The position numbers were made by a program, and so were the translations under genes. A stretch of 64,000 nt of DNA, from assembly GCA_963752255.1 (NCBI GenBank), contig CAVVXT010000010.1:110217-174216 (forward strand), read 5' to 3'. The notes below the pieces were generated by a model. It made no database searches, was not told the DNA's origin, and saw nothing but the letters and a program-made list of their open reading frames with translations. Within the stretch, counting starts at the first letter, position 1, and every line of letters starts with the position of its first letter. Positions 8,001 to 62,840 of the stretch are shown piece after piece. The stretch is from Nitrososphaeria archaeon (GTDB lineage: Archaea > Thermoproteota > Nitrososphaeria > JACIWG01).

Positions 8001-8880
8001 TTGATAATCTTGGAAAAGGATCCCTTCTTAGAAAAGATACTTGTTCTGGCGGATGGTTCTCCACTAAGTAACTTGGCAATGGACACATCCGTGAGAATGG
8101 TCAAGAAGACGGATGCAAAGGTAACAGTACTGCACGTTATCCCTGACAGAGCGTTGTACTCTGGTTTCTATCCTGAAAACATTCCTTATGATGTGATAAC
8201 TAAAATTTTTGATGACCTGGAAGAAAGGGGAAAGAAGATAATAAGTGAAGCTCAAGAAGTATTCAAAAAAGAGGGAATAGAAGTTGAAGCACAGATCATT
8301 AGAGGACCTGACCCAGCGGAAGTCGCGCTCGAATATTCGAGACAGGGATTTGATATCATTATAGTCGGCGCAAGAGGTGAAGACGAAAAAGATCCCAGAA
8401 TGCTTGGAAGCATTACCTAGGAAGGTTGTAATGAATGCCACAGTCCCTACTCTCATAATCAAGAAGGAATGTCCTCTGGAGCGATTTCTCGTGTGTGTCG
8501 ACGGGTCTGAACATTCAATAATAGCCCTAGATTATATTTCTAAGCTAGCCCAAGAGATGGGGTCAAAGATTACGATTATTAACGTAGAAGAACGTAAACT
8601 CTACGATATGTCGCCCAGGACTGCTGTAGAAGGTGGCCAATTGGTCATCTCGCACGCCCTTTCTTCAATCGGTAAGCCTGACCTACCTGTAGATAAAAGA
8701 GTAGAATTCGGGGTAACCTCAGATGTCTTAGTTGAAGTCGCAGAAAAAGAAGGCATTGACTTAATAGTCATGGGAAGTAGAGGTCTAGGAACCGTAAGAC
8801 GATTCTTACTTGGAAGCGTCAGCGATGACGTCAGCCAAAAAGCTAGAACTTCTGTCCTGATATTTCCTTGGAGAAAATAG
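8001..8880 (+). CDS. Tandem-domain universal stress protein (split by a frameshift near 8415)
   Basis: Two USP domains (DGSPLS/DGSEHS; VGARG...LGS; MGSRG...LLGSVS) in overlapping ORFs 8001-8420 and 8377-8880. Confidence 0.85.
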
Positions 8881-19398: not shown

Positions 19399-20508
19399 TC
19401 ACCGCATCAATTCGTTTAAGATTACGTGAGCATCGGAAGACCTTGTGAACTGAGATATCTTTTTCCAGATCCCCCTCTTGGACGCTACCACCTTGAACTG
19501 GAACTCCTGTGTCGATTTCTCATTCGTATCTACGCGGCCAAGCCTGTCCGCGTCCATTAACCCGAAAGGATATCCGGGGAAACTTACGTCTCTAGAGTTA
19601 TCCGCCATGGCGGAAATGATCGACTCAATTTCTTCGAACCTGCTCCCTTCTGCCTGCTCCCTCAATATTTCAAACCTGAAAACATGCTCGGACTGCCTAT
19701 GCAGTTTAACTGCAAACATGTCAGCTCTGTGGTCAGGATGTGCTATTTTAACGATCGGATGATAGTACCAGGAAGACCCCTTTAGTAATGTGCTCTGGGA
19801 GAGTTCCCATATTGCTGAGAGCAGCGGCTGTCCGGTCGTTGTAAAAAGTGTAGATGTCTTGGATAAGGCGGTGAAATAGACCTCCTCGTTTAACGCCGTG
19901 TCGTATGCTTCATTCGCATACTTACTTTCGTTTGTGACAGATGTCTGTAGAGTTCCGTCCTTTACGAGTATATCGTTTCTATTGAGCTCTTCCTGCATTA
20001 TAAAGTTTGTAAATTTCCATTCAGCGAATGTACGTGCCGCGTTAGAGACCCTATCTATCGCAGCCCTCTGAAGCCCCGACATTATAGTCCTATCGAAGGA
20101 ATTGAACTTCAGGTCTTCAACTTCAGGCAAATATTTCCTCCATATTTCTTTTATCGGAACGAACTCCGTCCTGTAAACTATCTTCTTATCTTCCAACGTC
20201 GCATAGCATACCGTATAAAAATCAATCTTTTGAGGAACATTACACGGTTCAATTCTCCTGTTTCCTTTGAATAGGTTGAAATATAACCTTGTCAGTTCTA
20301 TTATGAAATTAGGTGCACTAGCTATTTCCATATTACCTCCGTCGATGAAACAGATTGTCCGTTCCGCATCGCTTTTAGGGATTGCATGAAAGTTAGCAGT
20401 ATCGAAATCGCTCGAATGATATCTCCTGTCAGCGAAAGTCGGTTGGCCTAGGGGAATGGGAATTACATTCTTTTCGAGCAATTGAACAGCCAAATCAATC
20501 GGTAACAT
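19399..20508 (-). CDS. NurA-like nuclease (RNase H fold)
   Basis: FIDGG, ILVKDGTL, ALSKTS, GYPFGLMDAD. Confidence 0.75.
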   Translation of the reverse strand: MLPIDLAVQLLEKNVIPIPLGQPTFADRRYHSSDFDTANFHAIPKSDAERTICFIDGGNMEIASAPNFIIELTRLYFNLFKGNRRIEPCNVPQKIDFYTVCYATLEDKKIVYRTEFVPIKEIWRKYLPEVEDLKFNSFDRTIMSGLQRAAIDRVSNAARTFAEWKFTNFIMQEELNRNDILVKDGTLQTSVTNESKYANEAYDTALNEEVYFTALSKTSTLFTTTGQPLLSAIWELSQSTLLKGSSWYYHPIVKIAHPDHRADMFAVKLHRQSEHVFRFEILREQAEGSRFEEIESIISAMADNSRDVSFPGYPFGLMDADRLGRVDTNEKSTQEFQFKVVASKRGIWKKISQFTRSSDAHVILNELMR

Positions 20509-20686
20509 CTTCTCACTTTACACTAATAGATATGCAAACATCTAACAAATATTTAAGCTAATCCACGAGTCTGCATCATTCCCGAATTTTGGCATACCTT
20601 AATCAAATTACTGTTACATCAAAAGAAAACTTCCATTTCTCTTTTCTCAACTTTAAAATGTAGCGACTATTAGATTTTTTAAAAGG

Positions 20687-20729
20687 TAGCGGGTCCGGTG
20701 GGACTTATACCTAAAAGGGTTTAAGTCCC
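20687..20729 (-). mobile_element. att-like site: tRNA 3'-end fragment fused to an 11-6-11 inverted repeat; left border of the island
   Basis: Minus strand reads GGTATAAGTCCCACCGGACCCG (T-arm plus acceptor-like); GGACTTATACC-TAAAAG-GGTTTAAGTCC at 20701-20728. Confidence 0.55.
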
Positions 20730-21073
20730 TCTATTTGCCTTATATTCAATATGTCAGCTATCATCTCTACTCTAAAGTAATTGGTATTTTTCTAATCTTG
20801 TTAGCTATAAGGTTTTTTAACGTCCTTTGCTTTCCCCCTTTTTTTCTTACTGTACTGAAAACTATTCTCTCAACAATAACAACATTTTTAAATCTGGGAC
20901 GCGGTCTTTTTTAAATAGTAATGCCGATTAAATTAGAATCTTTAGATTCTTCTATACAAGAAGAGAACATCACTTTGATTGTAGGTAAGAACATATTACT
21001 CAAAATAATCGAAAATTCAGAAAAACAATGAATAATACGTATCTAATTATTATTTTAGATTGAATGAAGTATA

Positions 21074-21547
21074 TCAATCGTATTTGTTAAAGATATATTC
21101 CAATGTGATGTTGCAGTTCTCTCTTATGATTTGCTCTGATTTACCCTCAAGGGAAATTCTTTGAGAAAATAGTAATTTTATTTCTATGGGAGAAATGTAA
21201 CCAGATAAAACTACTGGATAGAAATTGAAACCAATTAAGGAATTCTGATTTAGGAAATCCCTAATTGAATCACATACGTTTTTTATTTTTTGAACTGCAT
21301 CCAAAATTGGGGCATCACCTTTTTTTAATTCAACAATCACAATTTTCTTTTTTTCTAAAAAACAGCAGAGAATCAAGCAGTCACTTACCTTCCCTGGTTT
21401 GTGTTTTTGAACCCAATATTTTTCAACATTTATGATAATTTTTTGGTTTACACCTCTTCCGATCTTCATTGAGCAACCTTGATCTTTACATTTAGATGTA
21501 ACATAAGGTCTGGCTGAATTACAAAGATCTGTTAAAGCCCAAGACAT
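21074..21547 (-). CDS. Small PD-(D/E)XK-like protein, partner of the ABC-type ATPase
   Basis: SDCLIL...IVIVELK motif; starts 10 bp after the ATPase stop. Confidence 0.55.
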   Translation of the reverse strand: MSWALTDLCNSARPYVTSKCKDQGCSMKIGRGVNQKIIINVEKYWVQKHKPGKVSDCLILCCFLEKKKIVIVELKKGDAPILDAVQKIKNVCDSIRDFLNQNSLIGFNFYPVVLSGYISPIEIKLLFSQRISLEGKSEQIIRENCNITLEYIFNKYD

Positions 21548-21556
21548 ACTACTACA

Positions 21557-23086
21557 CTATCGTTGTTGTAGTGCTCTATCAATTTTGACCGATTCACCAT
21601 AAAGTTCTGTGATAACCTCGTTAAACCCAGAATCCTTCGTTGATGTATCACGAATATCTATTTTTTTGACTATGCTTTTGCCAGGTTCAGTTTGTGTAAA
21701 GAGATAGATTCCAACATATTCAGATTTTATTTGATCCAAAACACCGTATCCCAGTTCTTTTCGTTTTTTCTCAGAAACTTCTGATAATTTAACAAAATTC
21801 TGAATTTGTTGCAATAGGTAATCACTATGGGTTGTCATAATCAGTTTCACTCCTCCATTTGCAAGCCTTACAAGGATTCTTGTAAGTCTTCTTTGAGCAT
21901 CTGGATGTAAATGGGACTCTGGTTCTTCCATGAAAAGAGTTGAGTCAGGTCTTAAAATATACTTTAAGTATAGGATTAAGGGTGCTACTTCTGAGACCAT
22001 TGAAGATGCTCGGTGAAGAGGAAATTTAGCATTTTTTGAATAGTAGAAAATCTCTGGATAATTAGATTTCTCTGTCTCCTTTACATCAACTCTACCCATA
22101 GTGACTTCTTCTTCAATTAGTTTTGCGAGGTTGGAAAAGCTACCACCACGTCCTGGAAGTCTGATTATGTTAGCAAGAAAATCTGTGATAACACCACTCA
22201 ATGGAAGGAATTCTATTTTTCTAATTCCTATATATGGCATTTCCCTTATTAGTTCTGATGCTACTGTCTTATGCGCTGAAAGGATGCCTGAACGCGCAGC
22301 TGGCAGATAGAAAGAATGTAAATCTATTTTTTGGGGGGATAAAATAGAAGACAAGAATGCATCAAAAATATTTTTGAAGATCGAAAATCTGAAATAGCTC
22401 TTTTCTTTTTCGATTTCCTTTAGAACAGTTGGAGTAATTGAAAACTTGATAACTCCTTTACTTCTCCCTTCAAACCTAATTGAGCTATACCTAGATTTTG
22501 AAAATCTAAAGAGTAGTTTCTCTAAAGGATAAGTTGGAATCAATTGTAAATCGAAGCTTCTGTTTTCACATGTTAAATCAATCTCAAAATTCATAGTCCT
22601 GAAATTAACTTTTAGTGAATTACTACCGTGACTGCATAGATCGAACAAACTACATCCAAAAATTCTTTCTAGCTCTTCGGATAGAATTCGCAAGAATTCT
22701 GTTTTAAAACCATCCATCATAGATTTGTATAGCTCTTGAGTTAAATCTTTTGGTATCTCAAAATTTTCTATCTTATCTTTGTTGGATAAAAGAACTTTAA
22801 TGAAATTGTTCTCGACTTCGATAGGAATTTTCTCATAAAGATTCCTTCTTCTTCCACTATATAACATTCTATTCTCTCTATAGATTTCGGATTCAATAAA
22901 CATCGGCATATATGAAGAATAGAATTTCAGTAACGATTCCTCAAAGGTATGTATCAACATTGCAAAATATGATTTGCCTGTATTATTCTTACCAAGAAGA
23001 ATTGTAAAGGGCTTTATTACTATGGTTCCTTTTTCTATAGGACCAAAGTTCTCTACGGAAACACTAATTTGCTCCATTATTCGCAC
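21557..23086 (-). CDS. AAA_15/AAA_21-type ABC ATPase (defence-associated family)
   Basis: VENFGPI, Walker A GKNNTGKS, YLPAARSG, ASSMVSE, Walker B MEEPESHLHP, TTHS. Confidence 0.88.
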   Translation of the reverse strand: MRIMEQISVSVENFGPIEKGTIVIKPFTILLGKNNTGKSYFAMLIHTFEESLLKFYSSYMPMFIESEIYRENRMLYSGRRRNLYEKIPIEVENNFIKVLLSNKDKIENFEIPKDLTQELYKSMMDGFKTEFLRILSEELERIFGCSLFDLCSHGSNSLKVNFRTMNFEIDLTCENRSFDLQLIPTYPLEKLLFRFSKSRYSSIRFEGRSKGVIKFSITPTVLKEIEKEKSYFRFSIFKNIFDAFLSSILSPQKIDLHSFYLPAARSGILSAHKTVASELIREMPYIGIRKIEFLPLSGVITDFLANIIRLPGRGGSFSNLAKLIEEEVTMGRVDVKETEKSNYPEIFYYSKNAKFPLHRASSMVSEVAPLILYLKYILRPDSTLFMEEPESHLHPDAQRRLTRILVRLANGGVKLIMTTHSDYLLQQIQNFVKLSEVSEKKRKELGYGVLDQIKSEYVGIYLFTQTEPGKSIVKKIDIRDTSTKDSGFNEVITELYGESVKIDRALQQR

Positions 23087-27127: not shown

Positions 27128-27220
27128 ATGATGCCTGAGGAAAAAGCAAGAACAAGAATTGACCCAATCCTTAAGGCTGATGGATGGATAGTTCGGGTTA
27201 TGAATGGTTTGAGGAAATAA
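27128..27220 (+). pseudogene. 30-codon N-terminal relic of a different HsdR
   Basis: MMPEEKARTRIDPILKADGWIV parallels the HsdR start SEYRTRREKIDVQLRKSGWDV. Confidence 0.55.
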
Positions 27221-27222
27221 CT

Positions 27223-30037
27223 ATGGTAAAAACATCCGAGTATAGAACACGTAGGGAGAAGATAGACGTTCAATTAAGGAAGTCAGGTTGGGACGTCGAT
27301 GACCGATCAAAAGTTATTCAAGAGGTTGATACTAAACAGTCAGACTTCAAGGCTGGTAACTACAAAACCATTGATCAGACTCTGAAAAATCCAGAAGAAA
27401 AAGCATATGCAGATTATCTCCTTCTCGATTCTAATGGTTTGCCTTTGGCTATTATCGAAGCTAAACGAACGGACAGGGATTATCTTTCAGGGCAAAAACA
27501 AGCTGAAGATTATGTTAACGATATCAAGAAGCAGACAGGAAAGGATATTTTCATTTTCTTAACTAACGGATATGAGGTATGGTTTTGGAATAAACCGTTC
27601 GAGGCACCTAGAGCCGTTAGTGGGTTCCATGATAGGCGTTCCCTTGAACGCATTAGATTTCAGAATTACTCAAGGAAGGACTTCTCTGACGTTCCCATCA
27701 GCAAAGAGATTATCGATAGACCTTATCAAATCGAATCGGTAAAAAAAGTGCTGGAAGGAATAGAGAAAGGCAAAAGGAAATTTCTTATCGTTCAAGCAAC
27801 GGGTACAGGAAAGACTCGTGTTGCAATGGCTCTTATCGATGTTCTTCTAAGAGCTAATCGTGCCCAAAGGATTCTCTTTCTCGCTGACAGAAAGGAGCTA
27901 AGAGACCAAGCATACGGTGACAACGGGTTTAAAACATTCTTCCCTCAAGAGTCTAAAGTCAAAGTATTCTCTGGACAAGTTGACAAGACCTCTCGCCTCT
28001 ATGCTTCAACAATACAAACCTTCATGGAATGTTATCAAGAATTCTCCCCAGGCGATTTCGACGTAGTTATTTCAGATGAAGCTCACCGCTCTATCTACAA
28101 CAAATGGAAGGAGGTCTTTACTTATTTTGATGCGATTGAAATTGGACTTACAGCTACTCCATCTGACTTAATTGAGCGTGACACGTTCAGATTTTTTAAC
28201 TGTGAGGATAGTATTCCAACCTACCTTTACACTTATGAAGAGGCGGTTAAGGATGGGTGGCTCTGCAGACTACAAAGTATATGTTGCTCAAACTCGTTTT
28301 CAGATTGAAGGCATTCGGCCTAGCGACGTTCCTGACACAATAAAGAAGAAGTTGCTTGAAGAGAAAGGAATAAGTGAAGAAGAGATTAACTTTGAAGGGA
28401 CAGACATAGAGAAAAAAGTTGCTGTGTTAGGAACTAACGAAGCTATAGTAAAAGAGTTTATGGAAAAATGTCTAACGGATGCAACTGGAACACTACCAGC
28501 TAAAACTATTATTTTCGCTGTTTCACAGAAGCACGCAACAAGATTGTGGGAAGCCTTCGAAAAACTCTATCCAGAATACAAAGGTCGTCTGGCAAGGCGT
28601 ATAGTGTCAGAAGATTCAAGAGCAGACGAACTTCTCAAAGAATTCAAGACCGAAAGCTTGCCCCGCGTCGCTATTTCCGTTGGCATGTTAGATACAGGAG
28701 TGGACATACCAGAAGCATGTAATTTGGTCTTTGCTAAACCAGTGTTTTCAAAAATAAGATTTTGGCAGATGATAGGAAGAGGAACGAGACACGACAGAAT
28801 ATGTAAGCATAGGGATTGGCTGCCATATGAAAAAAAGGAGTATTTTCTGATTTTCGATTTCTGGAATAACTTCGACTGGCATAACATGCATCCAGAGGGT
28901 AAAGAGGAAGAACTAAGCGAGGCAGTTCCTACGAAAATCTTCTTAACAAGACTCAAGCAACTAGATTATTTGCTTCTGAAAAGGGATAAACGAGCAGATC
29001 TACTTAAGAAGAAACTTACTGAAGATGTAAAATCGTTACCTTGTGATTCTGTCACAATCAAAGAACATAAACGAGATATTGAGAGAGCTTTAACGCCTAA
29101 CGTATGGGATACAGTGGGGCTAGATGCACCAACGTTCTTAAAAACCAAGATTGCGCCTTTAATGCGTTATCAGAAGGATGTCAACCCAAACGAAGCATCT
29201 TGGACTTTGAAAATTGAACAGTTGAGCTTTGCAATTTTACAAGATAATAAAACCGAGATTGATAGGGTTAAAGATGACATAGGTGAGTGGCTCAATGCCT
29301 TGCCAACGACAATTCGAGAAGTGAAGGATAAACAGGAATTGCTCGACAAAGCATTACGCCCACAATTTTGGAAGAACATAACTTTCGATGACGCCCAGAT
29401 GCTTTTAAAAGAATTCGCATCGTTAATGAAATATAAACAGCCTGAACCGCGACCTATTATTATCCTCGATATTGACGATATTGTCCAACGGAGAGACTTC
29501 ATCGAATATGGCCCAGTTCCAACACAAGAATATGCTATAACTTATATTGACAAGGTTGAGAAAAGAATTAAGCAGCTCATTGAGGAACATCCCACCATTA
29601 AGAAGATTAAACGCGATGAGGTTCTAAATGAGGAAGACCTTAAGAATTTGGAAAAGACTCTAAATAGTCCAGAGCTTTATATTACTGAAGAGGTTTTGCA
29701 GAAAGCCTATGGACAGCACAAAGGGACACTCGTTCAGTTCATCAAGAAAATTTTAGGCCTGTACGAGTTTCCCGATGCAAAGAGGAGGATTCAAGAAGCC
29801 TTCAAGGCCTTCGTTATAGAGAAGAATTATCTTAACTCAGATCAGGTTAATTTCCTTCGTACAATTCAAACTGTGTTTTTAAAGAAGCACCATATTGAGT
29901 ACAGTGACCTGTTTGAGCCGCCATTTACTAACTTCGGTGTTAATGCACCGGTTCCGCTTTTCAATGTGGACGAGCTTAAAGAAGCGATCCAACTATGCAA
30001 CCAATTAGAGGTGGAAGTACTGCATGTTAGCCCCTGA
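27223..30037 (+). CDS. hsdR: Type I restriction enzyme R subunit, EcoAI/EcoEI-like (frameshift near 28260)
   Basis: ADY...IIEAK nuclease, ATGTGKT, DEAHRS, GLTATP, LDTGVD, QMIGRGTR, EcoEI_R_C-like tail. Confidence 0.93.
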
Positions 30038-31508
30038 ATTGAAATCGCAAATCAATAAGCTCTGGGATAGATTTTGGTCCGGAGGGATTGCCAATCCGCT
30101 TACTGCAATCGAGCAGATGTCTTACTTAATTTTTATGAAAAGATTGGAAGACCTAGATAACATCCATGCAAGAAGAGCAGCAGCGAGGAACGAGAAACAC
30201 AAATCACTTTTTGAAGGGCATGAAAATTGTAGGTGGTCACAATGGAAACATCTTAACGCTCAAGCAATGTTGAGACATGTTCAAGAAGTCGTTTTCCCAT
30301 TTATTAAAAACCTGACCAACGGCGATGATGTATTATACTCACAATATATGAGAGATGCTGTATTCGTTATTCCAAAGGCTTCCTTGCTGCAGGAAGCTGT
30401 CGCGATAATTGACGATATGAATATCACAGAACGAAATCAAGACACCCAAGGAGACATCTACGAATATCTGTTAAGTGAGCTAAAGACTGCAGGCAAGAAT
30501 GGACAGTTCAGAACACCAAGACATATCATTCGAATGATGGTTGAACTCATCGAGCCTGATATAGGCCAGACTGTTTGTGATCCTGCCTGCGGTACAGCTG
30601 GTTTTCTGATTGCTGCTTACGAACACATCTTGAGAAAATATACAAGCGATGATATCATAAGTATCCACGAAGATGGCTCAACACACAACTTGGTTGGAGA
30701 CAAAATTGTTGAGAAATCTCATTGGGACCTTTTGAAACGAGAAACATTTTTCGGCTTTGATTTTGACACTACAATGATTCGTATTGGATTAATGAACATG
30801 ATTCTCCACGGTATCGGGAGACCTAACATTCGTTATGCTGACACTCTTTCTAAACGCTTTGAACAAAAGGCACGGTATGATATTGTTTTTGCGAATCCTC
30901 CATTTGCTGGATCAATCGATAAAAGCGACATTAATGATTCTTTTAAATTAGATACAACGAAAACCGAACTTCTGTTTTTGGAACTCTTCTATAATCTTCT
31001 GAAGATCGGAGGTAAAGCTGCAGTTATTGTTCCAAACGGTGTCTTATTTGGTTCATCAAATGCACACATCAAAGCTAGAAAACTTGTGTTGGAGAATTGT
31101 CAACTTGAAGCTGTAATTTCCATGCCTGGAGGTGTTTTCCAGCCCTATTCCGGCGTTGGTACAGCCATTCTTGTTTTTGTAAAGGGAGGTAAGACCGATA
31201 ATGTTTGGTTCTACGAGATGCGACAGGATGGATATACCCTAGATCAGAAACGTGATTTTATTGATGGCGAAGGTGACATTCCTAATATAATTCAGAAGTA
31301 CAAGAAGCGAGAGGAGTCAGGACAAAGCATCTTGGTGCCATTTGAGAAGATAAAACAGAGTGATTACAACCTCTCAATTTCAAGATACAAAAAAGTTGAG
31401 CGCGAGGAAGTTGAATATGAAGACCCTTTAGTTCTAATAGACAATGTTCTAGAAAGTGAGCGTGAAATCGAAAACGATTTAATAACTCTTAAAAAGATGA
31501 TTCAATGA
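30024..31508 (+). CDS. hsdM: Type I R-M m6A methyltransferase
   Basis: GQFRTPRH, DPACGTAGF, ANPPF. Confidence 0.95.
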   Translation: MLAPELKSQINKLWDRFWSGGIANPLTAIEQMSYLIFMKRLEDLDNIHARRAAARNEKHKSLFEGHENCRWSQWKHLNAQAMLRHVQEVVFPFIKNLTNGDDVLYSQYMRDAVFVIPKASLLQEAVAIIDDMNITERNQDTQGDIYEYLLSELKTAGKNGQFRTPRHIIRMMVELIEPDIGQTVCDPACGTAGFLIAAYEHILRKYTSDDIISIHEDGSTHNLVGDKIVEKSHWDLLKRETFFGFDFDTTMIRIGLMNMILHGIGRPNIRYADTLSKRFEQKARYDIVFANPPFAGSIDKSDINDSFKLDTTKTELLFLELFYNLLKIGGKAAVIVPNGVLFGSSNAHIKARKLVLENCQLEAVISMPGGVFQPYSGVGTAILVFVKGGKTDNVWFYEMRQDGYTLDQKRDFIDGEGDIPNIIQKYKKREESGQSILVPFEKIKQSDYNLSISRYKKVEREEVEYEDPLVLIDNVLESEREIENDLITLKKMIQ

Positions 31509-32624
31509 AAATATCGAAACTGGAAGAACTTGCAGATATTCAATACGGATTTCCTTTTAATTCAAAGAAATTTAAGGAAAATGGTAGGATTCGGGTTGTA
31601 AGAATAAGGGATATAAAGAAACCTGAAAAACCTACTTTTTTAGATGATATCTATAGACAAGAATATGTAATTGGAAACGGAGATATTATTGTTGGAATGG
31701 ATGGAGAATTCAATTGTATTATTTGGAATTTTGGAAAAGCTGTCTTGAACCAACGAGTTGCAAAAATTATACCTAAGAACTTTGTTTCCAAGAGTTATCT
31801 CTATTATATTCTTAAAATTAAACTCAAAGAGATAGAACAGAGGGTAACATTTGCTACAGTAAAACATCTACTTGATTCACATCTTCGGAATCTTGAGATA
31901 CCCTTTCCTCCATTAAATGAACAGATACGAATAGCATCCATCCTTGGAAAAATTGATGAGCTGAAAGATAAACGGGAACAAGCAAATTTGATGACTAACA
32001 AAATTCTTCAAGTTATTTTTCTGCAGATGTTTGGAGACGGTAATTTCACACGTGAGCCTATCAGAGAACATATTATAAAGACAGAAGTAAGAGACCCACA
32101 AAAAAAACCTCATGAATACTTCAAATACATCGATATTGCTGGAATTGATAATAAATCTGGAAAAATAGTAAAAGTAAAAACTATACCTAGGGAAAGATGC
32201 TCCAAGCAGAGCAAGAAAAGTAATCAGAAAGGATGACGTGATCATATCAACAGTGAGACCTAATCTAAATGCAACTGCGCTTGTTCCGCCTGAGCTCGAT
32301 AGTCAGATTTGTTCTACTGGGTTTTGCGTTCTTCGTTGTAAGAGCTCATTGAATCCAAGATTCCTATATGTTTTCACAAGAAGAACAGAATTCATCGATG
32401 TTCTATCATCTCAGATGAAAGGAGCTTCCTATCCCGCTGTGACAAACGATGATGTCTTGAATGTTGAAATACCAATTCCCCCTATTGAACTTCAGAATAA
32501 ATTCGTTTCAATTGTTGAAAGAGTCCAAAATATCCAAGAAAAACAGCAGCTATCCACTGGGGAAATTACAGAGTTATTCAATTCTCTCATGTCCAAATCA
32601 TTTAAGGGAGAGTTGGTGTCGTGA
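31505..32624 (+). CDS. hsdS: Type I R-M specificity subunit (frameshift near 32190)
   Basis: Two TRDs with IPFPPLNEQ and IPIPPIELQ; ends LMSKSFKGEL. Confidence 0.9.
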
Positions 32625-32625
32625 G

Positions 32626-33483
32626 ATGCAGTTCCTTTTAAAACCTAATTGGCAACAATTAAACAGATACATCTGGAATTCCCTTGAAAAATCGGCACCA
32701 GCTGACGTATATATTGAATTATATCGCTTTCAAGGAAGAATATTGGGAATTGATTCACGAGCAAATGAGCCCGACGTCACACAAGAAGAAATAGATGCTC
32801 GTAACATGTTTTTAATTATAATAAATGACACAAAACTAGCTAAAAATGAATTCAAAAAGTACAACCCTCCAACTAATGAAGCTATTTGTATCGAGCTATT
32901 GGAGGGATTCTATGGAGTCTTAAAAGACAACTTCGGTACTAAACTGGCAAAGAAATATTATTCAAAATTATCGCAGTTCTTACTCGAACATAATCTAAGA
33001 TACAAACTTGACGCAAATTGCAAGTTTCATTTAACAATTCAAGGCATATTAATGACTCAATATGTACATCTACGTCAGTTTCTTGAAAATAATCCTGAGT
33101 GCTCAGAATGTCTAAGTGAATTAGAAGACATCATTTCTAATTTACATCAGTCACAACAGCAAAGAAATTGTGTACGTGTTTCTAGCAATCTATTAGAAAA
33201 CTTGGTAGTTGCAAAAGCAAATAGAAGAGCTAGTACGCTATCGCGGGCTTTGGAACAATGTCCTGTGGATTTATTTCCACATGATGCAGTACGTGAAAGC
33301 TTAAAGAAGATTTATGATTTTGCATGCGATTATCCAAACATTCGACATGCTGGTAGACCTGAAAGCCGTTTAAGAGACCTCAGAAATGATGACGTGCTTC
33401 TTATCTTATCCTTAACAATAGGTTTCGCATCTTTTCTCTCTAGGGAGAATGTTAGTCAAACAATACTTAGTGGAGATATATGA
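32626..33483 (+). CDS. AbiJ-like / HEPN-like abortive-infection-type protein
   Basis: C-terminal KKIYDFACDYPNIRHAG; begins 2 bp after hsdS. Confidence 0.55.
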   Translation: MQFLLKPNWQQLNRYIWNSLEKSAPADVYIELYRFQGRILGIDSRANEPDVTQEEIDARNMFLIIINDTKLAKNEFKKYNPPTNEAICIELLEGFYGVLKDNFGTKLAKKYYSKLSQFLLEHNLRYKLDANCKFHLTIQGILMTQYVHLRQFLENNPECSECLSELEDIISNLHQSQQQRNCVRVSSNLLENLVVAKANRRASTLSRALEQCPVDLFPHDAVRESLKKIYDFACDYPNIRHAGRPESRLRDLRNDDVLLILSLTIGFASFLSRENVSQTILSGDI

Positions 33484-38259: not shown

Positions 38260-38556
38260 CTTTCACTTATCCTTCACTTTCAGCTAGAGGAGATAATAGG
38301 CTAGTTGAAGAGGCCCTAGAAGAATTTAGAGATTCTATTAACTACAATGTGCCTTTATTCCTAACGGTTCAAAATATCCTTGATAAAAGTAAGATCATGT
38401 CTTTTGAAAATAGACCCTAGAACTTTCGACCATTGGACTACACCGCCAGAGCTGGCGATAGAATAAAAAATATAGTGTGGCTAGTTCACCTCTCGCTTTT
38501 TTGACATTAAGGAATAGATTTATAATTTTATATACTCAATAAAGAATAATTGTATT

Positions 38557-39486
38557 TTGAAGTCATTGAATAATGATTGTGATAAAGACTTAGTTGACAA
38601 ACAACTAAAACAAACCCACCTTGCAACTATGTTAGACTATTACTCTGGGAAAGGTGCATCACATATAACAATTTTTATAGCTTTCGTATTTGGTCTTTTT
38701 ACAATACTAGCAATATTATTTTTATCAAATATTACCGATATCCCATTTGTTATATTATCAATTATCTACTTTTTTTTCTCAATTGGAGGATTATATGAGT
38801 TTTTTAAATTCAGTTTTTATAATAATGTTGTAAATCACATAAATGTTGAATTAGATAACCTAGTTCCAACACCAGAATATACAAGTTTTGAATTTGGCTC
38901 TCGCCCCTATTCAGAGCGCAAAGGCTCCAAACTTTCAAAACGTATTTATCGTATCTTCTATTTTTCACGTCAAAGGAGCTTAGTTCTTAATTTGGTTGTA
39001 ATTCTTTTTTCTGGTTCAATTCTTTTTGCTTGGATTGCTTCAATATTTAATCACTTCATCCAATTTGAAATTACTCTAAAGCAAGCCTTATACCCTTTCA
39101 TTGTAATTTTGGTATTTATCGGTGTATTACTATATTATTTAACATCTAGAGAAGAATTAAAAATTGTAAAAACTGATATAAATGATTATGAAATTAATAT
39201 TGAACTTAACGTATTAGAGGATACTGTAATAAGTCAAGTGCGTGTAAATGGAAAACCAATATTAAAAGATAAGATGATAGATGACATAAATGTAGAAATA
39301 TCTCCTATTCCAATATTTAATAAAAAAGGCGAAGCAATTATACCTTTAAAGAAAGGGAAACAGGATTTGAAATTGATATTCCCTAAAGAAAGGAAAACGG
39401 AATTTGAAACAAAGGTCTATTACATAGCAATCTTGACAGAAGGAGAACCTCCTTTACGATATTATACAAGTGCCCCTGAAAAGTAG
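38557..39486 (+). CDS. Hypothetical membrane protein with a C-terminal beta-rich domain
   Basis: 309 aa, 4 TM segments then a beta-strand-like tail. Confidence 0.6.
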   Translation: MKSLNNDCDKDLVDKQLKQTHLATMLDYYSGKGASHITIFIAFVFGLFTILAILFLSNITDIPFVILSIIYFFFSIGGLYEFFKFSFYNNVVNHINVELDNLVPTPEYTSFEFGSRPYSERKGSKLSKRIYRIFYFSRQRSLVLNLVVILFSGSILFAWIASIFNHFIQFEITLKQALYPFIVILVFIGVLLYYLTSREELKIVKTDINDYEINIELNVLEDTVISQVRVNGKPILKDKMIDDINVEISPIPIFNKKGEAIIPLKKGKQDLKLIFPKERKTEFETKVYYIAILTEGEPPLRYYTSAPEK

Positions 39487-39518
39487 CATGTATATATATT
39501 CTACATAATTCGTCATTA

Positions 39519-39746
39519 TTAGTTAACATCTAGCCTTTTCCGTTGAAGTTCTTTAACTATCTTCTCTATTTCTGAAACCTTAGAAATCTCCTTTTCCAAT
39601 ATTTCAACCCTATTCCTTAAACTAATGTTTTCAGTCGCTAGGGAATTAACTAGTGTTTGAAGTTCTTTATTCTTTTCGCTTATTTCTTCAGAATATTCTT
39701 TAACTTTCTCCTTGACCTGCTTTAGAAAGTCTTTAACATGATCTAG
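39519..39746 (-). pseudogene. Coiled-coil gene tail without a start codon, possibly an integrase C-terminus
   Basis: DHVKDFLKQVKE...KELQTLVNSLATENISLRNRVEILEKE...*. Confidence 0.4.
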
Positions 39747-40666: not shown

Positions 40667-41455
40667 TCAAAATTTATACATACCTTGCCCCAAGAATGTG
40701 ATAACCTTTTGGTCTCTTAAAACTTGTAAACTGGCTGGCGGATCTTGGGGCGGATATGTCTGTTTCTGGGGTGGAGCTTAGCTAATTGGTCCTCAAACGT
40801 GTAGGCCTGATTTAACGTGAATGTCTCTTGATCTAGGCTTTCTTATGCATGCCAGCACATCCGTCATCCATCCCCGTGAAAGGGACGACTGTCCAAGTAG
40901 GAATGAAAATCTTTTCCAAGAATACCTTACCGCATTCTTGGGCATTTCAAACCCATCCCTGATGATATGTATTCGAGCATCTGTTGGCAGTTCTCCGAGG
41001 AGAATGCTGGATCCTACCCAGCCGCTCCGTCTAGCAGATTCCCTGAGGGGTTTCCGTTTTTCTACTACTGATTCCGTCATGAAATATTTTGGAACAAGAA
41101 ACAGGTTCGACACATTAAACAATTTCATGTCGTATTGGAGGAAGAGGTAGCTCGGTGCCGTTCCAGCGCGTATTGCTTTGATCTTCGGTTCATAGGCGGA
41201 GTTCATGATCTGATATCCGTAGGGGTGGCTCTGGCTCTTCAGTTGATATTCTTCCAGACAGTCCGGGCAGACAAAGTCCACTACCTGCCTTCCTGTTGGA
41301 GTGGTAGATAATACATCGGATGCGCACGCTGGGCAGTACAGGTTCTCCTGAACCCAATCTTCGGTGAGAACTCTTGCCCGTTGGGACAGGCTCCTATATG
41401 GCGATGCTATTTCAGGTTTTAGCTCAAGCTTCAATCTGAACTCAGAAAATATCAA
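40667..41455 (-). CDS. dpnI: DpnI-family (Dam-replacing) Gm6ATC-dependent restriction endonuclease (frameshifts in the wH tail)
   Basis: SQRARVLTEDW, CPAC, DFVCPDC.EEYQLKS, RKPL..ARRSGWVG, wH C-terminus. Confidence 0.9.
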
Positions 41456-41980
41456 GAGTTTCTAAAATTTATAGGTTATGATATAAGAAATTCGTGCATG
41501 TGATTAAAAAGCTTAATATTTTGCCTTCCATTAAGATGTCCATAAGTCAGAATGTCGGAAGAATTGATTAAAGGGTATATTGAGGATTACAATTATCAAG
41601 AGGACAATCAGGGAACTTATCGTGACTTTATTCATATAGAAAAAAGATATATGTTCACCATTCTTGATTCTTGCAAAAGTCCCAAAGAGATCTTTTTATG
41701 CTATTAGTGTAACCTGCAAGAGCATATTTTCTAAACAGATCCAATTATACCTTTTATTTAGTCCGGTGATTGTTTCCAAATTTTGGGATAGTCTATGGAC
41801 AATAGGGAGAATATCTTTTAGGTTGCGGCGGGTAGTGGAAGATGGTTAACGGGTGATAGCTTGCTAGACTGCGATGTCAGCCTATGGCTGGTGTCCCCTA
41901 AAAAAGCCCAGTACACCCCAGCAGAAGACCCTACCACCCATATTTAATGGCAGCACAAATTTTGCCAGATAAAAATCTAA

Positions 41981-42078
41981 ATTATCCACCATTATCCTCA
42001 CCATTATCCTCACCATTATCTTCCATTATCCTTATACGTTATGCCCCCATTATCCTAATTATTATCCAAGATTATCTT
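41981..42078. repeat. Helically phased ATTATC(C) direct-repeat array
   Basis: ATTATC at 41981, 41991, 42003, 42015, 42025, 42049, 42061, 42071; degenerate GTTATG at 42038. Confidence 0.85.
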
Positions 42079-42240
42079 AAAGCTAGTGCCTTTATCGATT
42101 CCAAATTTTATCAACTCCGAGAATCTGCCTTTCCTAGCTATGAATATCTTTGTTTAAAGTAGAGTGAATTCACTTCACGGTAATGTAGTAATAGAATATT
42201 TAATGTACCTTCTCAGTATACAACTCTCTGAGATCTTTTA

Positions 42241-42813
42241 TCACATTTGCATAGAACCCAACGCTACTAATGATATGCCGACAAGAAAAGCTCCTAAAGT
42301 AGCAGCAATCTGAGTTGTGTTATTTTTTAAATTCGCTTTTGCAAGTTCTGTTCCACACTCTTGACATCTGACCTGATCCCGCGAACTTTGTCCTTGGACG
42401 GGGATAAGGTTACTACATACAGGGCATGGAACAATTTTCATATCGATCTCCTCACTGTAACCGCATCCAAGAGTGATCATTTTCACCATGCCCCTTTTTT
42501 CTTCGATGACACCAAGCTTCAACATAAGGTGGATCAATTCTTGTTTACGCCATGGAATTTCTTCCCATCTCTTTTGTCCCCAATCATCAAAGTCTTTAAG
42601 CTCCGCTTCAATTCTTCCTCCTAGTTCGGTTAACGCATAACGCGGTGTAACGGTTGAAAATTTGAGCACGACTCCAGCTTTTTCAAAATCCACTAGTATG
42701 CGATAGACGGTTGTGGGGTTAATGTTCGCAAAACTCACTTTTTCAACTACTTCAGCTAAGGTGGGGGCTTGATCAGACTCTTTTAGGACTTTCAAAATTT
42801 TCGCCTTTAACAT
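42241..42813 (-). CDS. Winged-helix DNA-binding protein with Zn-ribbon and C-terminal TM anchor
   Basis: KILKVLK...TLAEV...PTTVYRILVDFEKAGVV...RYALT; CPVC...CQEC; hydrophobic tail. Confidence 0.75.
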   Translation of the reverse strand: MLKAKILKVLKESDQAPTLAEVVEKVSFANINPTTVYRILVDFEKAGVVLKFSTVTPRYALTELGGRIEAELKDFDDWGQKRWEEIPWRKQELIHLMLKLGVIEEKRGMVKMITLGCGYSEEIDMKIVPCPVCSNLIPVQGQSSRDQVRCQECGTELAKANLKNNTTQIAATLGAFLVGISLVALGSMQM

Positions 42814-42881
42814 GAATTACAACTCACGCTCAGTTTGTAATGGTGGTAGGTCGGTATAAAAGGTTGCGGTAGTTTAGAAAA

Positions 42882-44498
42882 ATGGAAAAGAAAAATGGGA
42901 AAAAAGTGGACGAAGAACCCGAACGGCTTGAAGATATTGCCAAGGAACTCAAGGAATTAGCCAAGAATAAGCCACTTAGTGATACAGATTTGGTGAGGGC
43001 TAAGCAGCTTATGTATAGGCTTAAAGAATTTGGTTTCACTAATAGGCAGATAAATGAGATAACTGATGGTGGATGGTCAGAGTCGACAGTAAAGCTCTAC
43101 ACGAGAGGTGCGACCGTCAAAAATTTGAGCCAGAAGAAGAATGCAGTTGACCTCTTAACTCAACTAATTAACATGGATTTGAGCCTAGAAGATGTTGAGA
43201 TATTCGTTTCGATAAAGAAAAATTTAGACTCTAAAAACGTTGGTTTCCAAGATATTTTAAACCTACTCGGTGAAGCTGACGGGCTTAAAGTTGATCCCAA
43301 AGAAATAGTTGCAACCTATCTAAATTTCCAGAATTCAGGCCTATCGGTAAGACAGTTGAGTGAAATCCTTTCATCCAAAGCAGAACTTGACAAAATGCAT
43401 GTGACAATTGAATTAATGGATGAAATTCTCCAAGCATCAAAAGTCTATGGAGACGCCGGTAAAATCCTTGAAGCTTTAAAAAGTTATGGAGCACTTGGGG
43501 CTATCCAAGAAGACATTAAGAAGACTTCTTCTGAGAAAGAGAATCTTCAGAATCAAGTTAACGGATTAAAGCTAGAAGTTACTGATTTGGAAAAACGTAA
43601 AGATGCTGCAAAAGATTCCCTGGCGACTTATGAAAGGATAAAAACTCTCGGCTTCGACGAACCCACCTTCAAGAGACTAAAGGCGTCAGCAGAAAAGTTC
43701 GGAAGAGTAGATTCAGTTCTTGATGCAGTAAACTCTTTCGTTGACCTATCTGAAATCAAGAGAAAGAAGGATGATTTAGAATCTGAGTTGAAGAAAGTTG
43801 AAGCTGATCACGCCCACCTTGCAACAATAATAGAGATCTGCAAGACATTGCTTTACAAATACAAGTTCAGTATAGCAGCCATAAACGACATCTACGAAGC
43901 CGCCAGAAATTACGGTGACCCATTACAGGTCTTGAAGGCTATTAACTTATACGGAGAAACCTTGAAGATTCGAGCAGAGATAGACACATTAAACAAAAAT
44001 AAAGAGCAACTTAAAGCAACGGTCAAAGAGCTTGGAGATCAATCTCAACAACTGGAGGCGACGATCAAAGCACTCAGGGCTTCAGTCGATGATGCTCTTG
44101 CGCCGATTAGGAACGAAATTACAAAGAATGTCGATTACGTGATTAAAAAGTTCGTTGAAACTTTAGCGGACATGTCTGTACAGTATGAACAGTACGCCCA
44201 AAGATATGGTGAACTAAAGGCTGAGGCAGGGAAACTTGAGGAGGACCTCAAGCTAGGCCGAATTATGCTGTTGCTCATAAAATATCCGAGCGAAGCTAGA
44301 CAGGTTCCATTGGAATATGATGCGCTTATACTGAGTGGCATAGTAAATCATTGCAGGGCTATGGGTATAAATCCGACACTTAAACTCCAAGACGTTGTTG
44401 AATCGAAATTATGGGCGATAGGAAGTTATAGCGTTACGTTAGTCGAACTGCTCGAATGGTCCCTGAAGGGGCTAAGAAAAAGCATCCCACATGTGTGA
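42882..44498 (+). CDS. HTH-like N-terminus plus long coiled-coil protein with three internal repeats
   Basis: GFTNRQINEIT..WSESTVKLY; repeats YGDAGKILEALKSYG, FGRVDSVLDAVNSFV, YGDPLQVLKAINLYG; no Walker A. Confidence 0.75.
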   Translation: MEKKNGKKVDEEPERLEDIAKELKELAKNKPLSDTDLVRAKQLMYRLKEFGFTNRQINEITDGGWSESTVKLYTRGATVKNLSQKKNAVDLLTQLINMDLSLEDVEIFVSIKKNLDSKNVGFQDILNLLGEADGLKVDPKEIVATYLNFQNSGLSVRQLSEILSSKAELDKMHVTIELMDEILQASKVYGDAGKILEALKSYGALGAIQEDIKKTSSEKENLQNQVNGLKLEVTDLEKRKDAAKDSLATYERIKTLGFDEPTFKRLKASAEKFGRVDSVLDAVNSFVDLSEIKRKKDDLESELKKVEADHAHLATIIEICKTLLYKYKFSIAAINDIYEAARNYGDPLQVLKAINLYGETLKIRAEIDTLNKNKEQLKATVKELGDQSQQLEATIKALRASVDDALAPIRNEITKNVDYVIKKFVETLADMSVQYEQYAQRYGELKAEAGKLEEDLKLGRIMLLLIKYPSEARQVPLEYDALILSGIVNHCRAMGINPTLKLQDVVESKLWAIGSYSVTLVELLEWSLKGLRKSIPHV

Positions 44499-44559
44499 TC
44501 ACTTTGCAATTCAATGAAAACATTGCATTCTTGACTTATCTTGTTGGGGGCTAAAGGGA

Positions 44560-45519
44560 ATGAGTCTAGAGAAAATTGAAGAGTACCTGAAAGATGTTCA
44601 AGCTATAAAGTTCTATGATACCATTAAAGCGCAAAATGAACGACTGATAGAGCAGAATAAGAAGATCGAAGAAACGTCTCAAATCGAAAGAAACAAACTG
44701 ATGGAAATAAACAGCGAACTGACACTAGAGCGTGACAACTTATCCCAAGAAATAATTGACCTCAGAGCTGAAGTCGACCAAAAAGATTCGAGGATCAATA
44801 ATTTGACGACCAATCTTGTTTCAAGCAGAGAAGAAGCCTCAAAACTCAAAGAGAGAGTTAAGGAACTTGAAGATCTAAAAGCTACGGTGGAAGGGAAGAC
44901 ACTCAAAGAGGCAGCAGAAATCTTCATAAAAGCCAAGAAGGAAGAAATTCAAAAGGAAGCTTTAGAAAGCTCCAACTTGATGAAAGCAGAATGGACACTG
45001 TCCGAAAAGCCTACGGAGGTAAGAAATGAAGCTATTCGAATACTCAATCACATAATCGCAAGCCTCAAGATAACAGGTTATAGACCGGAGATGACTGACT
45101 TGGCAGGGAAAGGATTGTATGATGATGTCGAAGCTATAATAAAGTCTGATGTCGACAAAAGGCTCGACGAAGAATTTGAAAAGAGGGTTGAACAAACATC
45201 TACTCAAAGAACCGCACAGAAGTTCAATCAATTAGTGTCTACAGAATGGCCGGACTTTCTGAGAACGCATTTGGAGCCGAAGGCTAGGGAACTGGAACTC
45301 AAAGTTAAATCCAACGTTCTGAGCCTTCTTCAGGGTACATGGCCTACAGAATGTGAACGGTGTGGAATGAAAGGTTCGCTAACCCTTCCAATTGAAGGGG
45401 TAGAATATCTACTAAGAAACGGCTCCATAAAAACAAACTGCCCTAATCATCAATGTCATCATCAAACTCCTTTGAAACTAATAGATCTAATAAAATTGAA
45501 ACTTTCTCCCAGTTATTGA
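44560..45519 (+). CDS. Coiled-coil protein with C-terminal Zn-finger
   Basis: Heptad-rich N-terminal half; CERC...CPNHQC. Confidence 0.72.
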   Translation: MSLEKIEEYLKDVQAIKFYDTIKAQNERLIEQNKKIEETSQIERNKLMEINSELTLERDNLSQEIIDLRAEVDQKDSRINNLTTNLVSSREEASKLKERVKELEDLKATVEGKTLKEAAEIFIKAKKEEIQKEALESSNLMKAEWTLSEKPTEVRNEAIRILNHIIASLKITGYRPEMTDLAGKGLYDDVEAIIKSDVDKRLDEEFEKRVEQTSTQRTAQKFNQLVSTEWPDFLRTHLEPKARELELKVKSNVLSLLQGTWPTECERCGMKGSLTLPIEGVEYLLRNGSIKTNCPNHQCHHQTPLKLIDLIKLKLSPSY

Positions 45520-45640
45520 TTAACATAATATCTGCTATCGCTCCTTTTTTTAAAATCTAGATGACTATTAAAGCGCGGTACTATTAATTTTTTAGCGATC
45601 CCTGTTATCACGAATCGTAGAAACCCAATTAAAGAAAATA

Positions 45641-45862
45641 TTAAAATGCCAGAGTGATCCATGTCGGAGTGAGTGAGTGAGTGAGCACTATATACGCTAT
45701 TGATGCAGGTTCCTTACCCAGCCACTTCACAAATTCAAGAATCTTCGACGCATTACCTCCCATTCCCGTATCCACAAGAACTAAAGCCTCCTTGCCGAGG
45801 AAGACGTAAGAGTTTGCGCCTCTCACACCAGGCACGAGATATACGCTTTCAGTGATCTTCAC
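45641..45862 (-). pseudogene. Truncated metallo-beta-lactamase-fold hydrolase
   Basis: NSYV...LVDTG...IVLTHS, then shifted H.D.DH and truncation. Confidence 0.7.
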
Positions 45863-46327
45863 ATTTCCTCACTCTCATAGTTATTGTTCTGAAAGGCTAT
45901 TATTTGAGTTTTGGGGGTCAAAGACATTAATCTATTATCCATTCAACGAAAGGGTTAATCTTAAGATCAAGGCTCAGAAGGCTAACTTGATTCGTTAAGG
46001 TGTTGAACAAGCTCCTTTGCGTTGTAAAACATCCACATTAGATCATCGAAGGGGAACAGATGGTTTAGAGAGGTCAAGGGCCTTCAGCTCCAGATATTTT
46101 TCAGGTGAAGCACCGTACTGCTCTACGACAGCTATGGCCCGCCTAATATATTTGCATCCTCGATCTTTCTGATTCTACCCTTCAATATCTCACGTTCAGG
46201 ATGTTTGGAAAGAAATTCTTTGAAAGCTATGGGATTGCCTTTATTCAAAACTTTAAGGTAGATATCAGAATAAACAGGAAATTTGTAAACCATAAAAGTT
46301 TAAAAATTTAGTCTACAGAATATTTGT

Positions 46328-62765: not shown

Positions 62766-62840
62766 GCCCAGGTAGTATAGACTGGCCTAGTATGCATGGC
62801 TGTCACCCGTGCGACCCGGGTCCGAATCCCGGCCTGGGCG
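62766..62840 (+). tRNA. tRNA-Asp (GTC), no encoded CCA
   Basis: Acceptor GCCCAGG/CCTGGGC plus G discriminator, anticodon arm CATGG-CTGTCAC-CCGTG, T arm CCGGG-TCCGAAT-CCCGG; TATA-like CTTAAAAA upstream. Confidence 0.92.

Follow-up and report, generated by a model that had tools for sequence, protein, structure and literature searches.

A phased repeat array and two coiled-coil proteins in a Nitrososphaeria archaeon: a candidate NTPase-free module for DNA maintenance or tethering

To our knowledge, DNA segregation and maintenance are poorly understood in most archaea and their mobile elements, and the motor-free maintenance systems described so far come from no more than a few bacterial plasmids. 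The subject of this report is a cassette in a 64-kb stretch of the genome of a Nitrososphaeria archaeon (the stretch as a whole is called the window), in which a phased array of the short repeat ATTATC accompanies adjacent genes for two coiled-coil proteins of 538 and 319 amino acids (aa), the first with an N-terminal helix-turn-helix (HTH). Judged by architecture, the 538-type proteins belong to a known class, that of HTH/coiled-coil proteins with iterated cis sites.

KfrA of RA3 is described as an HTH and coiled-coil protein with internal sequence iterations, which binds five 9-nt repeats over its own promoter, forms complexes with the alpha-helical KfrC and aids plasmid maintenance (PMC7783346). 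pSK1 Par, RacA and RocS are outlined as sharing an N-terminal winged HTH (wHTH), an oligomerising coiled coil and a C-terminal anchoring or disordered part, with RacA binding repeated centromere-like sites and tethering DNA to the pole (PMC11500499). In the passages that deal with it, stbS comprises two sets of five 9-bp repeats with an 11-bp cycle, upstream of its operon, to which the HTH protein StbA binds cooperatively on one face of the DNA, with no plasmid NTPase said to be needed; the same source describes tubC as two sets that together hold seven 12-bp repeats (bioRxiv 10.1101/2022.04.29.490116). Both KfrA and StbA are in addition presented as repressors (PMC7783346; bioRxiv 10.1101/2022.04.29.490116).

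The locus recalls KfrA/KfrC (IncP and IncU plasmids: RA3, RK2, R751) in having an HTH/coiled-coil protein with three internal modules, an adjacent alpha-helical partner and, in most relatives, a phased array at its own promoter. It differs in that the arrays are longer (6–12 copies) and usually doubled in inverted orientation, the partner has a zinc (Zn) ribbon, the setting is archaeal and chromosomal, and no ParA/ParB (IncC/KorB) module lies nearby; KfrA_N is absent from the 19 Pfam families matched by the 538-aa protein at E ≤ 0.1 (hmmscan). The wHTH of pSK1 Par, RacA and RocS is of MerR type, whereas the 538-aa protein has no MerR or DUF536 match in Pfam (one relative, P0021, has a precomputed PF13411 hit), lacks a membrane-binding helix and has a dedicated partner gene; its C-terminus is a small folded domain, not a DUF536 plus amphipathic helix or a DivIVA-binding tail. 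StbA/stbS is alike in cis-site geometry, the family here also having two sets of short repeats with a cycle of ~11 bp upstream of the binder gene, but StbA of R388 is small, has no long coiled coil and shows no sequence relationship, and the stbS sets are direct where those of the family are inverted. ParR and TubR use the motors ParM and TubZ, and no motor is encoded here; ParABS, archaeal SegAB and AspA-ParBA, which serve DNA segregation, differ equally, as no Walker-type NTPase is found in the three proteins of the locus or the adjacent open reading frames (ORFs). The likeness to SMC/Rad50 lies in long coiled coils, with weak coiled-coil matches to Rad50, JetC and LmuB, but there are no ATPase heads, and the NCBIfam Rad50 match (27 bits against a cut-off of 700) covers coiled coil only. 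Among the papers listed by literature searches, and judged by title and abstract, none describes the 538/319 family. What appears new is the protein family, its archaeal host range, the doubled inverted arrays, the Zn-ribbon partner and an apparent change of specificity by head swap.

The array itself is built from exact copies of ATTATC, eight in number, which lie on the + strand at 41981, 41991, 42003, 42015, 42025, 42049, 42061 and 42071 (Table 1). Successive spacings are 10, 12, 12, 10, 24, 12 and 10 bp; a degenerate copy, TTATGC at 42039, fills the 24-bp gap, weaker copies trail at 42092 (TTATCG) and 42108 (TTATCA), and Tandem Repeats Finder reports a 12-bp period across 41987–42032. With 34 ATTATC on the + strand of the 64 kb, 0.05 would be expected per 96 bp, and the Poisson probability of eight or more is ~1e-15 per 96-bp segment, while the word is not enriched in the window overall (71 matches against 59.5 ± 7.2 in shuffles). 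In the complete 2,107,113-bp genome (here G000; contigs are numbered C and loci L), only two clusters have at least four exact copies within 120 bp, namely the window array (8), which is the densest in the 2.1 Mb, and C6:42804-42870 (4), which adjoins a paralogous cassette. Clusters of at least five ATTATCC, with one mismatch allowed, are likewise confined to the window (8) and to C6:42581-42644 on the opposite strand (6).

The window array lies 3' of a gene for a 190-aa wHTH protein, 165 bp beyond its stop codon, and ~800–900 bp upstream of the 538-aa gene, outside the 68-bp divergent region in which the tataaaag stretch is predicted to form the promoter of that gene. The repeats are oriented in the direction of the 538-aa gene. 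Further upstream, the candidate distal array is weak, and as ten other positions in the 64-kb window also reach at least four hits in 70 bp, it is not significant alone; its position nevertheless matches the clear inverted GGATAA-type array of relatives. A scan of 41450-42300 against Rfam gave no match at E ≤ 1, and across the whole window the sole match above the gathering threshold was a tRNA-Asp at 62766, also found by ARAGORN, so array and spacer match no known RNA family. No RNA sequencing run is listed for the window; three DNA runs are, with shares of 0.06–0.20.

Arrays of this kind accompany the coiled-coil genes elsewhere, as the first-pass annotation of the window, made from the letters alone, had proposed in calling the array a cis element tied to them. 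G000 has two further copies of the cassette and a relative of the same genus (G409) has four, and a phased array with a 10–12-bp step lies upstream of the 538-like gene in 7/7 copies. The repeated word varies: it is ATTATC in the window, C6 and G409:C17, TGTTGA in locus orientation (gene strand: TCAAC) in G000:C5, ATCAAC in G409:C18, TGCACC plus TTGCCT in G409:C3, and TCATCA plus TTTACG in G409:C5. On C6 the 538-like gene is in two pieces (60% and 48% identity to the window protein) and is followed directly by a 319-like gene (45% identity), and two inverted arrays, of GGATAAT and ATTATCC type, flank a spacer of ~155 bp. The split (L009, G000:C6:33000-50000, ~8010–8080) results from one extra G in a G5 run, by comparison with L041, and may be real decay or an assembly error. 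The C5 paralogue is 33% identical and truncated to 395 aa. Array and two genes together make a module of ~3.7 kb.

The 538 family is small and patchily distributed, numbering 23 proteins in 5.8 billion clustered sequences, including the window protein and the C6 fragment. At E ≤ 1e-3, 158 cluster representatives belong to the 319 family. The 538 family is present in 1/401 sampled genomes of the phylum (G000 itself) and 2/10 of the order. Species-representative genomes contributed eight loci with 538-like genes, in metagenome-assembled genomes (MAGs) of Methylarchaceae, Bathyarchaeia and Nitrososphaeraceae, and metagenomes a further 70, retrieved by a peptide pattern inside the HTH. Pooling gave 85 loci oriented on the 538-like gene, 71 of them with at least 250 bp upstream; the set contains some duplicates and is not phylogenetically independent. 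Chains of exact 5-mers in 9–13-bp steps with at least five links number 15 in 90,238 bp upstream of these genes against 3 in 440,076 bp elsewhere, and 4-mer chains of at least six links 28 in 104 kb against 10 in 426 kb. At least five TTATCC (≤1 mismatch) per 100 bp occur upstream in 37/71 loci (79,219 bp) and elsewhere in 2/71 (417,892 bp); at six or more the figures are 29 loci and 1. The 37 positive loci hold 33 distinct arrays, with the consensus (c)ATTATCC(y), in which 51% of 176 spacings are 10–13 bp (mode 10) and further peaks lie near 20–22, 32–33 and 43–44 bp.

In most relatives the array ends ~20–40 bp before the start codon, as judged from its start 100–170 bp ahead of a tblastn match that covers the protein from about residue 16 on; an inverted GGATAA-type array lies further upstream. 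Such inverted pairs are present in 22 loci (19 distinct), and clear inverted arrays include those of C6 (6 copies), L018 (7 exact GATAAT), L033, L047, L053, L057 and L105. The spacers of relatives measure ~50–300 bp and contain no sequence conserved across the family; the word GCCCAG was noticed by eye in several. Searched reciprocally, three TTATCC with 4–7-bp gaps occur in 9/401 genomes of the class, including G000, and the reversed control in 8; the six loci that were inspected proved to be tandem or coding repeats lacking a 538-like gene. The pattern also matches at least 117 viral stretches. L232 (G227:C2, ~251.2 kb, same class) has a small inverted TTATCC(C)/GGATAA set beside an ORF with a DPPF motif that resembles a DNA methyltransferase by eye, with no 538-like gene visible in the 3-kb locus.

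Which protein would read the array is suggested by what varies along with it. Most relatives have no gene between array and 538-like gene, so the N-terminal HTH of the 538-type protein is the sole DNA-binding domain that is always encoded. Heads with W(S/K)E(P/S)T(V/I)KxYTRG are paired with the array word T(T/C)ATCC, those with G(R/H)AWxxSxxR with TCAAC or TCATC, that with LSERTIKSYTKK with TGCACC (one copy), and those with WSESTVKGYTKG, in a distant subgroup, with inverted arrays of TCGTC or GACGA type. L018 and L019 are 69–85% identical over residues 81–538 and 72% in their 319-like partners, and only 35% over residues 13–80; their arrays differ, being ATTATC and ATCAAC respectively. Conversely, L018 and the window protein, both with ATTATC arrays, share 62% identity over residues 13–80 against 24–33% elsewhere and 35% in the partners. 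This apparent natural domain swap is the strongest single piece of evidence that the HTH would set specificity. In the three ATTATC cassettes the N-terminal HTH domains are 54–69% identical while the divergent genes are unrelated. The array motif thus tracks the first ~80 residues of the 538-type protein, not its body, the partner or the neighbouring wHTH. Neither in G000 nor in G409 do two intact copies have the same array motif, the numbers being small. L020 (G409:C5:36000-50000) has a second phased array of ~16–17 TTTACG copies at ~5607–5875, upstream of its TCATCA array, possibly combining two specificities in a single cassette.

The 538-like and 319-like genes are themselves linked. In the 38 loci with at least 1 kb of downstream sequence, a 319-like gene follows immediately on the same strand in 22; the other 16 have an unrelated ~190-aa gene (4), a tyrosine integrase (5) or none of these (7). 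The downstream ORFs of L060 (189 aa) and L071 (150 aa), considered as 319 homologues, proved unrelated (hhalign probability < 1%). In L017 there is no separate partner, and a 576-aa protein joins a 538-like body to a C-terminal 319-type Zn ribbon (hhalign probability 96%, E 2e-9), a gene fusion which argues that the two proteins act together.

The protein features noted in the first-pass annotation are borne out. The 538-aa protein has its three (Y/F)G...(I/V)L.A...(Y/F) repeats, starting at residues 189, 273 and 344, with helical hairpin modules that end in (Y/F)G turns; G190 and G345 are invariant across 25 relatives. Its AlphaFold model is all-helical, with long helices at 192–255 and 347–467, and is best in the N-terminal HTH (predicted local distance difference test, pLDDT, 86–89 over residues 20–80). 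The 319-aa model (pLDDT 88) has three long helices and a ribbon formed by Cys 265, 268, 294 and 299, the C-terminal motif that had been noticed; among 34 relatives the first three never vary, and C299 reaches at least 90% conservation. The 190-aa protein matches a FUR-type wHTH family in Pfam (E 2.5e-6, 28 bits, cut-off 23.1), and a hydrophobic C-terminal stretch from residue 169 (19-residue Kyte-Doolittle mean 2.06) agrees with the transmembrane (TM) helix assigned to it; its Zn ribbon is seen in Cys 130, 133, 150 and 153 and a weak LysW-like match (E 2.8e-4, under the cut-off). The observed eight repeats and degenerate copy at about one helical turn also stand, with 10–12-bp spacings and the one 24-bp gap, as does the lack of Walker motifs that had set the locus apart from SMC, ParA and SegA: no Walker A motif is present in the three proteins, and neither in these nor in the neighbouring ORFs does Pfam detect an ATPase, actin or tubulin family.

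By sequence and fold, the 538-aa and 319-aa proteins appear to fit no described family. Foldseek against the Protein Data Bank (PDB) gave no hit at E ≤ 1e-3 for the 538-aa model, with weak generic HTH matches to DnaA domain IV, RptR and Spo0J (all E > 0.5), and the VIA wide fold search gave coiled coils only (Z < 7). A fold search with the 319-aa model returned no hit at E ≤ 1e-3. PDB sequence profiles gave coiled coils only, and for the 319-aa protein the solved structures offer no match other than generic Zn ribbons and coiled coils. PADLOC, PHROGs and NCBIfam scans gave only coiled-coil or sub-threshold matches; PADLOC found no real defence family, just coiled-coil matches to JetC and LmuB (E 4e-6 to 7e-5), and with Pfam added, the scans found no Rep, primase, helicase, polymerase or AAA+ family in the cassette. 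Several 538 relatives carry Pfam PF28175 in precomputed annotation.

Table 1. Coordinates of the cassette features in the window
Feature	Position	Strand	Description
Possible degenerate distal inverted array	41786..41850	-	GGATAG, GGACAA, GGAGAA, GGTTAA; 4 hits, ≤1 mismatch, 65 bp
Spacer, ~130 bp	41851..41980		between possible distal and proximal arrays; relatively G+C-rich; no Rfam match
Proximal phased array	41981..42113	+	8 exact ATTATC(C) at 41981-42076, 1 degenerate, 2 weak trailing copies; period 10-12 bp
190-aa wHTH + Zn-ribbon + C-terminal TM protein	42241..42813	-	divergent from 538-aa gene
Divergent intergenic region, 68 bp	42814..42881		TATA-like tataaaag ~30 bp before 538-aa ATG
538-aa core protein, proposed array reader	42882..44498	+	N-terminal HTH ~15-80; coiled-coil helices; small C-terminal domain 469-534
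319-aa partner	44560..45519	+	helices 19-107, 115-171, 181-257; four-Cys Zn ribbon 260-306
3' flank to right-hand cassette breakpoint	45520..45647		comparison with G409:C18 remnant

These observations favour, with a confidence a little short of even, a joint reading in which the array is the cis binding site of the 538-aa protein, and the 538-aa and 319-aa proteins form an NTPase-free module for DNA maintenance, tethering or pairing that belongs to or stems from integrative elements. One N-terminal HTH head would occupy each ATTATCC unit, one unit per helical turn, so that bound copies would align on one face of the DNA. The parallel coiled-coil bodies, together with the 319-aa partner, would cross-link them into a large nucleoprotein complex, possibly extending to both inverted arrays. 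In the common form, where the array lies directly on the 538-like promoter, binding should also repress the operon. The complex would form a large, sequence-addressed handle on the DNA, a mode of action like that outlined for KfrA/KfrC, pSK1 Par, RacA and StbA/stbS (PMC7783346; PMC11500499; bioRxiv 10.1101/2022.04.29.490116). By analogy, the handle may serve to segregate an excised element, to tether or pair DNA, to shape a recombination site or to confer incompatibility; among these, segregation or tethering is plausible. For the 538-aa protein we infer DNA binding, autoregulation, higher-order assembly and a role in maintenance. The cassette would belong to, or derive from, integrative mobile elements and now reside in variable chromosomal islands, and the membrane-anchored wHTH gene would be a local insertion between array and operon, possibly an extra regulator and not the array reader.

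Several points weigh against this joint reading. The head-coding DNA is contiguous with the array, so a single recombination event could transfer both with no functional link between them. The covariation of motif and HTH rests on few independent variants (L010, L017, L019, L020 and the bacterial subgroup), and HTH variants are under-sampled because the metagenome loci were retrieved through an HTH peptide pattern. Fewer than five TTATCC copies are found in 34/71 loci, several of which show degenerate or different arrays by eye, and at least L070 and L084 have no array near the 538-like gene. At 800–900 bp from the 538 promoter, the window array cannot be a simple operator there. Neither sequence nor fold searches gave a match to KfrA, Par, RacA or StbA. 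The neighbourhoods of the archaeal cassettes contain neither integrase nor replication genes, which leaves partitioning of an extrachromosomal element without direct support, and no relative was found in 72,556 plasmid records (PLSDB; tblastn, two queries), 50,697 phage records (INPHARED) or IMG/VR; confidence in a partition role is low because the searched collections yielded no extrachromosomal carrier. The function of the cassette is, finally, wholly inferred.

If binding and maintenance are confirmed, the cassette would provide archaea with a counterpart to KfrA, Par or StbA, would supply a set of orthogonal protein–DNA pairs, and would mark cryptic integrated elements in Nitrososphaeria, Bathyarchaeia and related lineages. 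As a compact module of one array and two genes, it is easily tested, with dozens of natural variants and a domain swap that already hints at the specificity determinant. A more ambitious version of the joint reading, which we consider unlikely though credible, sees a widespread, undescribed NTPase-free archaeal 'kinetochore' system with bacterial cousins on integrative elements. Here the 538-type protein would polymerise on the two inverted arrays, the Zn-ribbon partner would fold or pair the arrays, the DNA would be positioned, paired or tethered, and swaps of head plus array would generate specificities. As an 80-residue HTH head would be exchanged along with its array, several orthogonal systems could coexist in one genome, and if this is true, the specificities would be the equivalent of incompatibility groups.

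The alternative that survives best makes the array an operator only: the repeats would serve multi-site autoregulation, and the coiled-coil products would have a role unrelated to DNA maintenance, for instance in the cytoskeleton, the envelope or defence. The proximal array does overlap the 538-like promoter region in most relatives, KfrA and StbA set a precedent for repression, and the variable islands that house the cassettes contain restriction-modification, SNF2 helicase and glycosyltransferase genes. However, 6–12 sites plus a second, inverted set far exceed the needs of repression, and the array is kept, at its most perfect, 730–1660 bp from the promoter and beyond another gene in the window, C6/L041, L018/L066 and L019. 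That the window and its close kin retain a near-perfect array, despite a gene between it and the promoter, suggests that it does more than occlude the promoter, and a defence role sits poorly with the PADLOC outcome. An operator alone is thus an unlikely, if respectable, account; were it correct, it would still leave a family of unknown function with a well-characterised regulatory element.

The genomic surroundings bear on the origin of the cassette and on a second alternative. The window is part of the chromosome and includes phosphate-transport, purine-biosynthesis and RuBisCO-like genes; within it, the cassette lies at the right-hand end of a variable island of ~27 kb with low GC. Its right-hand breakpoint lies at ~45647: a remnant at G409:C18:12647-13087 (441 bp) is 97% identical to window 45207-45647 with nothing past it, and synteny with G409:C1 resumes at 46290. 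Elsewhere, archaeal cassettes have glycosyltransferase, rhamnose-synthesis, IS110, SNF2-helicase and surface-protein genes as neighbours. In the distant bacterial subgroup, L071, L079 and L087 are units of 3–4 kb between housekeeping genes, each made up of an array, genes for a 538-like and a 150-aa protein and, at the end, a tyrosine integrase; L071 adjoins a bacterial-type Pol III alpha gene, and L070 a primase-like protein, a serine resolvase and an integrase. These integrase-linked loci tie the wider 538 family to integrative mobile elements.

They also suit a reading in which the inverted arrays flank an attachment or crossover region and the 538-like protein is an architectural or directionality factor, with the recombinase acting in cis for bacterial relatives and in trans for archaeal copies. 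The integrase that ends the units of L071, L079 and L087, the resolvase added in L070 and the sharp breakpoint common to the G409 remnant all fit such a recombination site. The archaeal cassettes, however, have no nearby integrase, no convincing terminal direct or inverted repeats bracket that of the window, the spacers lack a conserved core, and comparison of the G409 loci with G000 gives mosaic islands instead of clean insertions. We regard this as distinctly improbable.

A three-protein segregation machine, in which the membrane-bound wHTH protein binds the array and tethers it to the membrane and the two coiled-coil proteins act as filament or scaffold, had been the proposal of the first-pass annotation. 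The wHTH gene separates the array from the operon, its product combines a credible DNA-binding domain with a TM helix, and four cassettes of the genus have a divergent gene at this position, at least two of them wHTH by Pfam. Against this, most relatives have no gene there, and the divergent genes in the three ATTATC cassettes encode proteins of 190, 161 and 255 aa that resemble neither one another nor the 309-aa one of L019, the window's alone among these four having a TM segment. The 190-aa wHTH has no paralogue in G000 and no homologue in any fetched locus, and a search of 5.8 billion proteins returns only itself; it is a lineage-specific orphan, not a core part of the cassette. Of the three-gene arrangement, then, the pairing of 538 and 319 stands, through the 22/38 loci and the L017 fusion, but the wHTH component does not, and the array motif tracks the HTH of the 538-type protein instead. 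A three-protein machine is accordingly very improbable.

Immunity through incompatibility, where chromosomal arrays and their binder act as decoys that destabilise incoming elements of the same specificity, with a repertoire in each genome, is scarcely more than a slight prospect. Cassettes do lie in defence-type or variable islands, a genome can hold several motifs (ATTATC, ATCAAC, TGCACC and TCATCA in G409), and where copies share a motif one is split or deleted (the C6 frameshift, the G409:C18 remnant), but the searched plasmid, phage and IMG/VR records contain no extrachromosomal element with the system, the counts are tiny, and the C6 frameshift, in its G5 run, is possibly an assembly error. 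Least probable of all is an iteron-type origin of an integrated replicon with the 538-like protein as initiator, which two phased repeat sets around a spacer and the AT-rich stretch that separates array from gene in L010 recall, but which is at odds with a G+C-rich window spacer, a cassette devoid of helicase, primase, polymerase or AAA+ domain, its multiple copies within one chromosome, and a coiled-coil-dominated protein unlike any replication initiator known to us.

The rest of the low-GC island holds NurA-like and AAA_15 ATPase genes (19399-23086), a type I restriction-modification locus (27184-33483), an RNase H-like gene and a DpnI-like, methyl-directed endonuclease gene (40793-41455). 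Within the restriction-modification locus, the R subunit (hsdR) is split into overlapping ORFs at 27184-28308 and 28172-30037, and the S subunit (hsdS) into 31505-32236 and 32238-32624, which may reflect frameshifts or phase variation. Just outside the right-hand breakpoint, 45641-45862 on the - strand encodes a 73-aa N-terminal fragment of a metallo-beta-lactamase (MBL)-fold protein, and a (GAGT)5 microsatellite at ~45667–45690 adjoins its end; in the C6 cassette and in L041, by contrast, the array side holds an MBL-fold gene of full length. Large genes for SNF2-family helicases likewise occur on the array side in L018 (G409:C17, 4518-7508) and L079 (217-3414), two unrelated cassettes, archaeal and bacterial-like respectively, and the L079 gene also has a phospholipase D (PLD) nuclease domain. 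Finally, elements of ~120–280 bp at 38328-38605 and 39515-39690 flank a 309-aa membrane ORF (38557-39486) in the window; they match at least 25 places in G409 at 77–97% identity and look like miniature inverted-repeat transposable elements or another dispersed repeat.

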